Shown: positions 61,589 through 61,699, counted from the first letter of the stretch. The stretch is 64,000 nt of DNA from an uncultured Candidatus Saccharibacteria bacterium (GCA_964385825.1 CAYLPX010000002.1:1281-65280), one strand, 5' to 3'. Made by a program: numbers and translations. Notes: a model not told the origin generated them from the sequence alone.

Positions 61589-61648
61589 TTCGATTCTCCC
61601 ATCCCGCATGAAGAAACTCCGTTTCGAGTGCGGGATGGGAGAATCGAA
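61589..61648. repeat. 20 bp perfect inverted repeat: the 3' end of tRNA-Gly and its inverted copy, 20 nt apart
   Basis: ttcgattctcccatcccgca [tgaagaaactccgtttcgag] tgcgggatgggagaatcgaa. The right arm is the T-arm plus acceptor 3' strand of the tRNA. Confidence 0.9.
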
Positions 61649-61699
61649 CTCCCGACATCAGTTTGGAAAACTGAAGTTATACCATTTAACTAATCCCGC
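61629..61699 (-). tRNA. tRNA-Gly (anticodon UCC)
   Basis: Manual fold of the minus strand: GCGGGAT TA GTTA AATGGTA TAAC T TCAGT TTTCCAA ACTGA TGTC GGGAG TTCGATT CTCCC ATCCCGC A. It has a 7 bp acceptor, GG in the D-loop, a TTCGA T-loop and anticodon TCC. CCA is not encoded. Confidence 0.85.

Follow-up and report, generated by a model that had tools for sequence, protein, structure and literature searches.

The 3' ends of tRNA and tmRNA genes are classical targets of integrases. Elements that target this region by means of a tyrosine integrase have a direct repeat on their far side and bring in variable cargo. In another group of systems, comprising MITEs, REP/BIME sequences and REPINs, small and non-coding intergenic hairpins occur in multiple copies that are homogenised within genomes, show presence/absence polymorphism and are flanked by direct repeats resembling a target-site duplication. 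The element described in this study appears to share these features with both groups, its own variable cargo being a defence-like gene. It lies in a 64,000-nt stretch of DNA from an uncultured Candidatus Saccharibacteria bacterium, which was analysed as a whole and is here called the window. The original prediction had noticed that the last 20 nt of a tRNA-Gly(UCC) gene recur as a perfect inverted repeat 20 nt downstream. We found that this repeat is one arm of a larger conserved element, at 61468-61610, and that the element belongs to a family that is widespread in Patescibacteria and apparently undescribed. The features of the locus are:

61710-61729, no strand assigned: GC-rich perfect palindrome CCTGCCTGCCGGCAGGCAGG, directly upstream of tRNA-Gly(UCC)
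61629-61699, minus strand: tRNA-Gly(UCC) gene (ARAGORN and Rfam RF00005, 71.2 bits)
61609-61628, minus strand: 20-nt spacer CTCGAAACGGAGTTTCTTCA between tRNA-Gly(UCC) and the antisense arm
61468-61610, minus strand: whole element copy of ~140 nt, as aligned by covariance model R1
61589-61608, minus strand: 5' arm TGCGGGATGGGAGAATCGAA, perfect Watson-Crick antisense of tRNA positions 73 to 54
61530-61588, minus strand: core hairpin P4, closed by GCC/GGC (covariance model alignment)
61485-61529, minus strand: core hairpin P5, GGTAGCGAAATTTT ... AAAATATTTGTGACC, containing the conserved G.U position of the family
61477-61485, minus strand: truncated 3' arm CGATTCTCC, a direct copy of tRNA positions 56-64

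The tRNA-Gly(UCC) gene is the sole complete tRNA gene of the window according to ARAGORN and Rfam; it is 71 nt long and does not encode the CCA end. Its last 20 nt form the copied segment X (TTCGATTCTCCCATCCCGCA, 61629-61648, positions 54-73), which comprises the T loop, the 3' strands of the T stem and of the acceptor stem, and the discriminator. A repeat search returned the inverted-repeat arms at 61589-61608 and 61629-61648, each of 20 nt, 100% complementary and 20 nt apart, confirming both the placement and the perfect complementarity originally described. When up to three mismatches were allowed, the 20-mer of segment X had two sites only across the 64 kb window, and none of 100 shuffles contained any match, which rules out a chance origin of the repeat. 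The arrangement is unchanged in 10 independent assemblies of the same organism and is therefore not an assembly artefact. The expectation that a 20-bp stem could form upon co-transcription is also borne out, as the hairpin is contained in the predicted minimum free energy fold of the read-through transcript (-60.2 kcal/mol, z = -5.6). The spacer holds a 5-bp mini-hairpin (GAAAC/GTTTC) and nothing more; in many relatives a full bidirectional terminator occupies this position. The upstream palindrome CCTGCCTGCCGGCAGGCAGG was found again at 6 unrelated Patescibacteria loci.

The hairpin had also been considered a very strong terminator, a claim that did not hold. A terminator scan of the minus strand made no call of an intrinsic terminator at the tRNA-Gly hairpin, in which the 20-bp stem encloses a loop of 20 nt and is followed by AGCCGCAGCG, with no T run. 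The window contains many perfect palindromes with arms of 16-26 nt, loops of 1-9 nt and A and T runs alongside, and these A/T-flanked palindromes are bidirectional terminators. With its 20-nt loop and missing T run, the tRNA-Gly hairpin is unlike them, and a canonical terminator was rejected on these grounds.

In the 5' to 3' direction, members of the family consist of the spacer (often the bidirectional terminator of the gene), the antisense arm, a core formed by P4 and P5, and the direct copy. The outer stem P1 pairs GCGGGATG with CATCCCGC, on which the individual folds of relatives agree, and P2 is a 9-bp hairpin. P3 pairs GGAGAATCG with CGATTCTCC and is joined by the linker AAAG to P4, which has a GCC/GGC closing and the conserved internal loop CCGGAG / GCGAGG; P5 and the 3' strands of P3 and P1 complete the fold. 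Together, the 5' strands of P1 and P3 are the antisense of segment X, and their 3' strands are the direct copy from position 56. In most relatives, P2 splits the antisense arm between the complements of positions 65 and 66, that is, at the junction of the acceptor stem and the T stem.

The fold is conserved and strand-specific. RNAalifold analysis of a MAFFT alignment of 14 copies revealed compensatory changes in 15 of 25 pairs. In 123 copies, 91.9% of the cells were paired, versus 68.8% in shuffled and 34-44% in slid controls, and double changes affected 36 of 37 pairs (853 cells versus 249); these counts come from an alignment fitted to R1 and lean towards the structure, and the separate MAFFT and RNAalifold analysis agrees with them. 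None of 500 shuffles equalled the observed pairing values. Moreover, 109 of 113 copies have G.U at one pair of P5, the neighbouring pair being G-C or G.U about equally often, and this conserved G.U makes the fold specific to the tRNA-sense strand. GNRA and UUCG are the usual apical loops of functional RNAs. Here, they are almost absent, most apical loops being C(GACG)G, C(AGCA)G, A(CTGC)T or C(GAA)G; GCGAAGC was counted 16 times and its complement twice. Judged by general loop stabilities, these loop types give a hint of single-stranded DNA rather than RNA.

The copy of the window departs from this architecture at both arms. Its P4 carries the conserved CCG(G/C)AG ... GCGAGG internal loop and a genome-specific insert, CGCGCGGAGCGAAGCGAAGCTTGG. 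P2 is absent, so that the antisense arm reads as an uninterrupted perfect 20-mer. On the other side, the remainder of the 3' arm (CATCCCGCA) is missing, and sequence leading into a 329-aa gene stands in its place. We also considered a decayed convergent tRNA-Gly gene on the plus strand and rejected it: the similarity ends at the T loop, and the flank is the conserved core.

The extent of the family was determined by several searches. A species-level scan with a tRNA-Gly(UCC) pattern (one genome per species) yielded 120 loci, all titled Patescibacteria except one labelled Burkholderiales. The module is present just behind the tRNA in about one in five of these 120 loci, a frequency that, like the others given for the family, is biased because the loci were fetched by tRNA or motif patterns. 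On element-bearing contigs, 11 of 89 other tRNAs have a copy as well. The covariance model R1, built from the MAFFT alignment of 14 copies, matched 57 times in the first 100 sources and a further 11 times in the remaining ones, in addition to 123 matches in 100 metagenome loci among the matches listed. By this model, there are about 180 copies in genomes and metagenomes of Patescibacteria, with sizes of about 105-190 nt and hit labels of Paceibacterota, Parcubacteria and Saccharibacteria. In genome loci, the R1 hits follow Gly(UCC), Gly(GCC), Pro(UGG/CGG), Arg(UCG) and Val(UAC) genes at a distance of 0-50 nt, and each copy ends with the 3' end of its own upstream tRNA.

A metagenome search that was independent of the arms, using the core motif TCGAAAGCCGGAG-N10-40-CGAGGCGGGGTCG, returned at least 120 loci. 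Among the matches listed, 90 of 117 testable loci lay no more than 150 nt downstream of a tRNA, and these 90 tRNA loci represent about 30 different anticodons; again among the matches listed, the direct repeat was complete (18/18) in 34 of the 90, and the P3 strand was fully complementary (9/9) in 39 loci of the search. The 27 loci without a tRNA call comprise five copies behind tmRNA genes, with matching arms, one behind a tRNA that holds a group I intron, ~7 second copies of tandem arrays, and ~10 that follow sequence with no tRNA or tmRNA assignment. The association of the family with tRNA and tmRNA 3' ends is strict: copies are found 0-150 nt downstream of these genes, always on the same strand as the upstream gene, and often between a tRNA and a same-strand gene. 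At the gathering threshold, Rfam 15 had no family matching the element in the window. Likewise, no Rfam match fell on the element in 8 loci with full copies (E up to 1) or in 19 further loci (gathering threshold), where the hits were tRNA, tmRNA, group I intron and chance matches only. Literature searches did not turn up a description of the element family.

The arms are specific to the local gene and their boundaries are sharp. Of the non-redundant tRNAs, 92 are followed by an exact copy of positions 62-73; in 56 of these, the first base of the direct repeat is exactly position 56, and in 70 the repeat extends 1-4 nt past position 73. Positions 66-73 have an exact antisense copy at 36 tRNAs; this copy is broken by P2 after 8-9 nt in 26 cases and runs unbroken for 20-21 nt in six, namely three tRNAs of the organism of the window and Val, Phe and Arg tRNAs elsewhere. 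For 12 of the 36, the entire spacer is a perfect palindrome that is continuous with the pairing of X and the antisense copy. Informative as to the origin of the 5' arm are tRNAs with a G.U pair or a mismatch within a stem. In all six of them the arm is the Watson-Crick complement of the tRNA 3' strand; for instance, an A stands opposite U70 of tRNA-Ala. Hence, the 5' arm is an antisense copy, and the alternative that it copies the tRNA 5' strand, as in a truncated tRNA duplicate, was rejected. The bases preceding the arm are not TGG as a rule, being TCA in the window and TTG, CTG or TTT elsewhere. No clear compensatory signal was detected between the two arms, in a count that is noisy from register errors. 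In copies with a diverged 3' arm, the match of the 5' arm to the tRNA has mostly been retained (likewise a noisy count), as neutral decay predicts.

Further copies are present in the same organism, one of them within the window:

63758-63864, minus strand: second, weaker element copy, behind tRNA-Pro(UGG) (R1, 24.7 bits, E 1.6e-4)
63944-64000, minus strand: 3' part of tRNA-Pro(UGG), cut by the window end (Rfam; full gene at L001:3139-3212)

The last 18 nt of the tRNA-Pro copy, CGAATCCCTGCACCCCGA (63758-63775), repeat the 3' end of tRNA-Pro(UGG) exactly and in direct orientation, this 3' end being the source of the repeat. The original prediction had proposed to look for inverted 3' copies at other tRNA genes of the genome. 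Perfect inverted copies of 20 nt were present at tRNA-Arg(UCG) and at tRNA-Gly(GCC), both of which lie on the same contig. The element behind Gly(GCC) (L001:1983-2120) has a private insert in common with the Gly(UCC) copy, and both are devoid of P2; their arms differ exactly where the two tRNAs differ. At tRNA-Arg(UCG), the perfect 20-nt antisense copy is combined with a core of a third type.

Core identity tracks the genome and not the tRNA type. Copies at different tRNAs of the same genome have a median core identity of 0.63 (top pairs 0.90, 0.86 and 0.77), and copies at the same tRNA in different genomes one of 0.445. These data establish a family with the architecture described above and with cores that resemble each other within genomes. 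Strong conservation of the core over the long term would be compatible with a cellular function, too. Precisely bounded empty and occupied alleles were found in three pairs of loci (L023/L077, L046/L109 and L075/L126), in each of which the sequence directly behind the tRNA of the empty allele is found behind the element 3' arm of the occupied one. L082 and L074 also differ by the element, the L074 copy being without the outer stem and starting ~24 nt downstream of the tRNA. Deletion between direct repeats could yield such alleles as well as insertion. In addition, tandem and decayed copies are frequent (L026, L067, L134, L050 and L053). Altogether, the element has several features by which MITEs are recognised: it is small, non-coding and multi-copy, with a flanking duplication and presence/absence polymorphism.

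Genes that might mobilise the element were sought in its surroundings. No recurrent partner gene emerged among 185 clustered ORFs downstream of 47 copies, and the genes downstream of these copies belong to conserved housekeeping families only. No integrase was detected by Pfam in the neighbouring genes of the window, nor among the ORFs downstream of the 47 copies; transposase, reverse transcriptase and Cas genes beside the copies were not found among the downstream ORFs either. Excised, circular, plasmid or phage-borne copies were not found. Viral contigs were scanned with the core motif, the 3'-arm junction and the tRNA end, and the scans returned nothing beyond chance matches, L191, which is a weak model hit (E 0.006), and complete tRNAs in viral tRNA arrays; a phage or plasmid attP was accordingly rejected.

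The sequence that replaces the end of the 3' arm in the window leads into the following features:

60448-61437, minus strand: ORF of 329 aa, called as 326 aa from the ATG at 61428
60382-60426, no strand assigned: perfect palindrome of the bidirectional terminator type with 18-nt arms, after the 329-aa gene and the convergent HU gene

The 329-aa ORF has no Pfam hit, and only 17 homologues of the protein were found in 5.8 billion proteins. When compared with PADLOC, it matched PD-T7-5 (E 2e-17) and PD-T7-1 (E 5.6e-12), and two of its homologues had the same matches. PD-T7-5 and PD-T7-1 are anti-phage systems of E. coli with a predicted RmuC-like domain (PMC10270631). Judging by protein similarity, the gene is a predicted PD-T7-5-like single-gene anti-phage homologue, carried as cargo of a variable islet. 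The junction of this gene cassette truncates the 3' arm of the element in the window. A comparison of related genomes for the adjacent gene, suggested at the outset, revealed that it is sporadic and situated in a variable islet; homologues in four lineages sit directly behind tRNA-Gly(UCC) or tRNA-Leu(GAG). L015 was the sole syntenic relative found via the neighbouring gene. In L015, the last 18 nt of the tRNA recur exactly and in direct orientation 176 nt behind the gene, and a degenerate version of the inverted copy, with a hairpin inside, stands at the position that this copy has in the window. The cassette of L015, which holds a 328-aa homologue, has the 18-nt repeat of the element on one side and a further CATCCCGCAC on the other. 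Since it is bracketed by tRNA-end repeats, the tRNA end is also a hot spot for gene cassettes.

The explanation that we prefer, and to which we would give roughly even chances, is a non-autonomous mobile element with target-templated arms. We infer a mobile unit that duplicates its target from C56 and whose antisense arm is templated on the target. Such an element would land at the 3' end of genes having a T arm, and its insertion would duplicate the target from C56 onward, in the manner of a long target-site duplication. The antisense arm would be gained or renewed by templated copying of the target, for example via snap-back or template switching around the terminator palindrome, a process that would account for Watson-Crick copies running on into the spacer palindrome and for the loss of P2. 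The core may be recognised in single-stranded form (ssDNA or RNA, on the tRNA-sense strand) by an enzyme encoded elsewhere, and the arms would decay neutrally after insertion. In the copy of the window, P2 would have been lost and the 3' arm truncated where the PD-T7-5-like defence gene now sits. A P2 hairpin inside a supposedly target-copied arm is not easily produced by simple copying.

The main rival of this mobile element is a cellular RNA that mimics a tRNA minihelix, which we regard as less likely. A cis-acting RNA module would be transcribed with or just after the tRNA or tmRNA, and its arms would pair into a tRNA-mimicking stem. This module might act as a processing, insulating or stabilising signal before a downstream mRNA, or as a decoy or sensor of tRNA ends, with selection keeping the arms matched. 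The paired arms mimic the stacked acceptor and T stems with the discriminator, so that RNase P, RNase Z and the CCA-adding enzyme could recognise them, and P2 branches off at the very point from which the D and anticodon arms of a tRNA emerge. The very strong covariation of P2, P4 and P5, the conservation of unpaired motifs and the conserved G.U that ties the fold to the tRNA-sense strand are all in agreement with an RNA. The same is true of the orientation, which always follows the upstream gene, of the copies often located between a tRNA and a same-strand gene, of one compensatory pair in the outer stem of L095, and of the window itself, where the terminator scan placed no terminator between tRNA-Gly(UCC), the element and the 329-aa gene. 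However, many copies have a full terminator between the tRNA and the element, and the distribution is patchy, with ~1 in 5 tRNA-Gly(UCC) genes and 11 of 89 other tRNAs of element-bearing contigs. The arms decay without compensation, and pairs 1-2 of the outer stem are mismatched in one subfamily. Moreover, the arm is strictly Watson-Crick, although G.U would suffice for RNA pairing, and the apical loops are not of the GNRA or UUCG type. The cores, homogenised within genomes, and the tandem and decayed copies look selfish.

Two other explanations are unlikely. The direct repeats of the tRNA 3' end, the L015 cassette with its 328-aa homologue between the 18-nt repeat and the further CATCCCGCAC, and the occurrence of 329-aa homologues behind tRNA-Gly(UCC) or tRNA-Leu(GAG) in different lineages could reflect the scar of a tyrosine-integrase island or prophage that was later deleted, the direct repeat being the displaced tRNA end and the inverted copy part of an attP arm. 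We deem such a scar improbable, as no integrase exists in or near the ~47 copies examined and the junction was on no viral contig scanned. Some 30 different tRNAs, with arms matching the local gene each time, are not what a single integrase family would target; besides, classical integration leaves direct repeats only, with no antisense copy, and covariation of hairpins is not expected of attP arms. From the original idea of an integrase or recombinase footprint, the recombination hot spot survives (direct repeats, empty and occupied alleles, variable content), but an integrase was not found nearby. Very improbable is a device of tRNA-Gly(UCC) alone, either an anti-tRNA that sequesters the precursor 3' end or a terminator of unusual strength. 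The 20-bp hairpin does dominate the predicted read-through fold (-60.2 kcal/mol, z -5.6), and the decay of the element 3' arm in the window leaves the antisense arm of this copy without another partner. Against such a device, there is no T run and the loop is of 20 nt, unlike the other terminators of the window, and in L015, a relative, the arm has degenerated and contains an interruption. The proposal of an anti-tRNA bespoke to tRNA-Gly(UCC) fails because the same arm belongs to an element family that occurs at numerous types of tRNA gene as well as at tmRNA genes. Furthermore, a tRNA folds during transcription, ahead of the synthesis of a downstream arm.

Returning to the mobile element with target-templated arms, it is possible, and we propose it tentatively, that the family represents a new class of self-propagating CPR element that acts on single strands and builds both of its terminal arms from the target. 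If so, any gene ending in a T arm and an acceptor stem would receive an antisense and a direct copy from T-loop position 56, by an insertion chemistry new to transposons, integrases and retroelements, in which the tRNA end would be the template or guide. The arms would then be written from the target, with no known mechanism of transposition or integration to explain them, and may point to a new enzyme or to a new nucleic-acid-guided insertion. The alternative, a general 'mirror' RNA module at Patescibacteria tRNA genes with a role in tRNA-end biology, would be equally new, and as a cellular RNA it would point to a new step in the processing or surveillance of tRNA ends, in a major branch of uncultured bacteria. 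Genomes of Patescibacteria are tiny, yet they retain many copies of a folded element of ~140 nt. These elements mark hot spots of defence-gene insertion, here of a PD-T7-5-like gene. They are also a hazard for annotation, as tRNA 3' fragments and long palindromes adjoin tRNA genes. The R1 model and the boundary rules make the question testable in public metagenomes and metatranscriptomes.

The element differs from the systems that it resembles most. Unlike those of MITEs, REP sequences and REPINs, its arms are not its own: they are copies, antisense and direct, of the 3' end of the upstream tRNA or tmRNA. Its duplication of 19-22 nt has a fixed start at T-loop position 56, and its site and orientation specificity are strict. 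In contrast to MITEs, it has no terminal inverted repeats of its own, its arms vary with the local tRNA, and no partner transposase was found beside the copies. From tyrosine-integrase elements it is set apart by having no integrase, a size of only ~105-190 nt and many tRNAs with matching arms, as well as by the extra antisense copy and the conserved internal secondary structure.

The attC sites of integrons, the attP of CTX phage and the ends of IS200/IS605 are comparable in that a strand-specific fold is kept by covariation and includes non-canonical pairs. Integration of a folded single strand, as in attC, would leave a direct - inverted - direct arrangement like that of the element. However, the hairpin arms of those systems belong to the element and stay constant whatever the target. 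The attC core sites R'' (RYYYAAC) and R' (GTTRRRY) are absent here, the ends being TGCGGGAT... and ...CATCCCGCA or their local tRNA equivalents, and inspection of the element copies revealed neither an integron integrase nor an Xer site nor a HUH transposase. The primer-binding site of LTR elements and the homing guides of type V-K CRISPR-associated transposons also contain a stretch antisense to a tRNA 3' end or tRNA gene, but the arm of the element has no CCA complement and lies 0-50 nt from the tRNA gene itself. Both the integron attC and the retroviral-type primer-binding site were rejected, as their defining motifs are absent. A group I or tRNA intron was rejected as well: the published introns of Patescibacteria are at position 35/36 and unrelated to the element (PMC13011429).

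Among RNAs, tRNA-like minihelices (mascRNA, viral tRNA-like structures and the tRNA-like domain of tmRNA) share with the element the acceptor/T-stem stack, the 3' discriminator and a branch. The element, in contrast, has no T loop, the corresponding bases being paired or replaced by the core; it is multi-copy, and its acceptor differs at each locus. ARAGORN and Rfam did not score it as tRNA-like. Quasipalindrome template switching (Ripley model) would explain the Watson-Crick copies continuous with the terminator palindrome and the loss of P2. This is a mutational process, however, and it leaves the conserved core and the spread to many tRNA genes unexplained. In our assessment, the element stands far from all known kinds of system.

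Copies of the element, the folded repeat of about 140 nt that lies 3' of tRNA and tmRNA genes, were also found in eight metagenome loci with no tRNA or tmRNA upstream (L263, L266, L276, L279, L284, L291, L325 and L375). In these loci, the arms again mirror the 3' end of the preceding sequence; in both L266 and L279, CTGTAGGGTCACA is present twice, once upstream and once in the 3' arm of the element. The preceding sequence has no Rfam match, and it may represent another stable RNA gene.

The core between the arms is not always the same. In the window's organism, the tRNA-Arg(UCG) gene is separated by 52 nt from a downstream antisense copy of its 3' end, 20 nt long and perfect. 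The locus lies on the contig of the window, past its end:

L001:1013-1165, locus at tRNA-Arg(UCG)

After the antisense copy, this locus carries a different core, GGCCAATTGAGCC ... GCCAATTGGG, TACTGTTCCTGTGAGGAAC, followed by a direct copy that is short. R1, the covariance model built for the element, detects this third core type poorly; the type is also present in L053, L303, L345, L049 and L132.

Just upstream of tRNA-Gly(UCC) in the window lies a perfect GC-rich palindrome of 20 nt, found exactly in six unrelated Patescibacteria loci as well:

61710-61729, palindrome CCTGCCTGCCGGCAGGCAGG in the window
L035:2417-2436, L272:1262-1281, L286:3211-3230, exact copies
L314:886-905, L347:814-833, L356:4153-4172, exact copies

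The L347 copy sits within the loop of P5, the second core hairpin, of another copy of the element. This palindrome seems to form a second repeat family of very small size. Two of the organism's assemblies, both short (L009:1-900 and L010:1-400), have other gene calls upstream of tRNA-Gly, with ORFs of 166 and 101 aa in place of the 406-aa protease; this may be due to strain variation, or simply to genes being called differently when contigs are short.

In the syntenic relative L015, the islet behind tRNA-Gly has a 29-nt repeat, TCGGTTCTAA...GCA, after its first cassette gene and again after its second (L015:1853-1881 and L015:2478-2506). Moreover, a GGTTCTAAC motif precedes the 326-328-aa homologues of the PD-T7-5-like gene product in L011, L015 and L019. 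This may represent the boundary of a cassette or a common 5' leader.

Throughout the window, the sequence between genes contains perfect palindromes of unusual length (arms of 16-26 nt with 100% complementarity, loops of 1-9 nt), with A and T runs on either side. They are typical of this genome and appear to be bidirectional terminators. Two ORFs encode giant proteins; in other respects the genome looks small and reduced.

15979-16031, 36057-36101, 7060-7102 and 12431-12473, examples of long palindromes
22251-30746 (-), ORF of 2831 aa
17947-21474, ORF of 1175 aa, preceding the 2831-aa ORF

The window also contains an isolated Rfam match of 82 nt (53.8 bits) to positions 2130-2211 of bacterial 23S rRNA, which we take to be the L1-stalk region; every rRNA operon is far away.

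43266-43347 (-), 23S rRNA-like match
43360-43430 (-), T-arm-like sequence GGTGCAAGGTTCGACTCCTTGCAGTGGTCA, just upstream on the same strand

ARAGORN calls no tRNA at the T-arm-like sequence. This could be a piece of a gene, or a mimic of rRNA to which a ribosomal protein binds.

Finally, a group I intron (L280:986-1221, 79.6 bits) lies directly upstream of an element copy. The intron presumably sits inside a tRNA gene, and ARAGORN misses this gene because of the presumed interruption. This arrangement agrees with a published report that group I introns occur within Patescibacteria's tRNA genes (PMC13011429).
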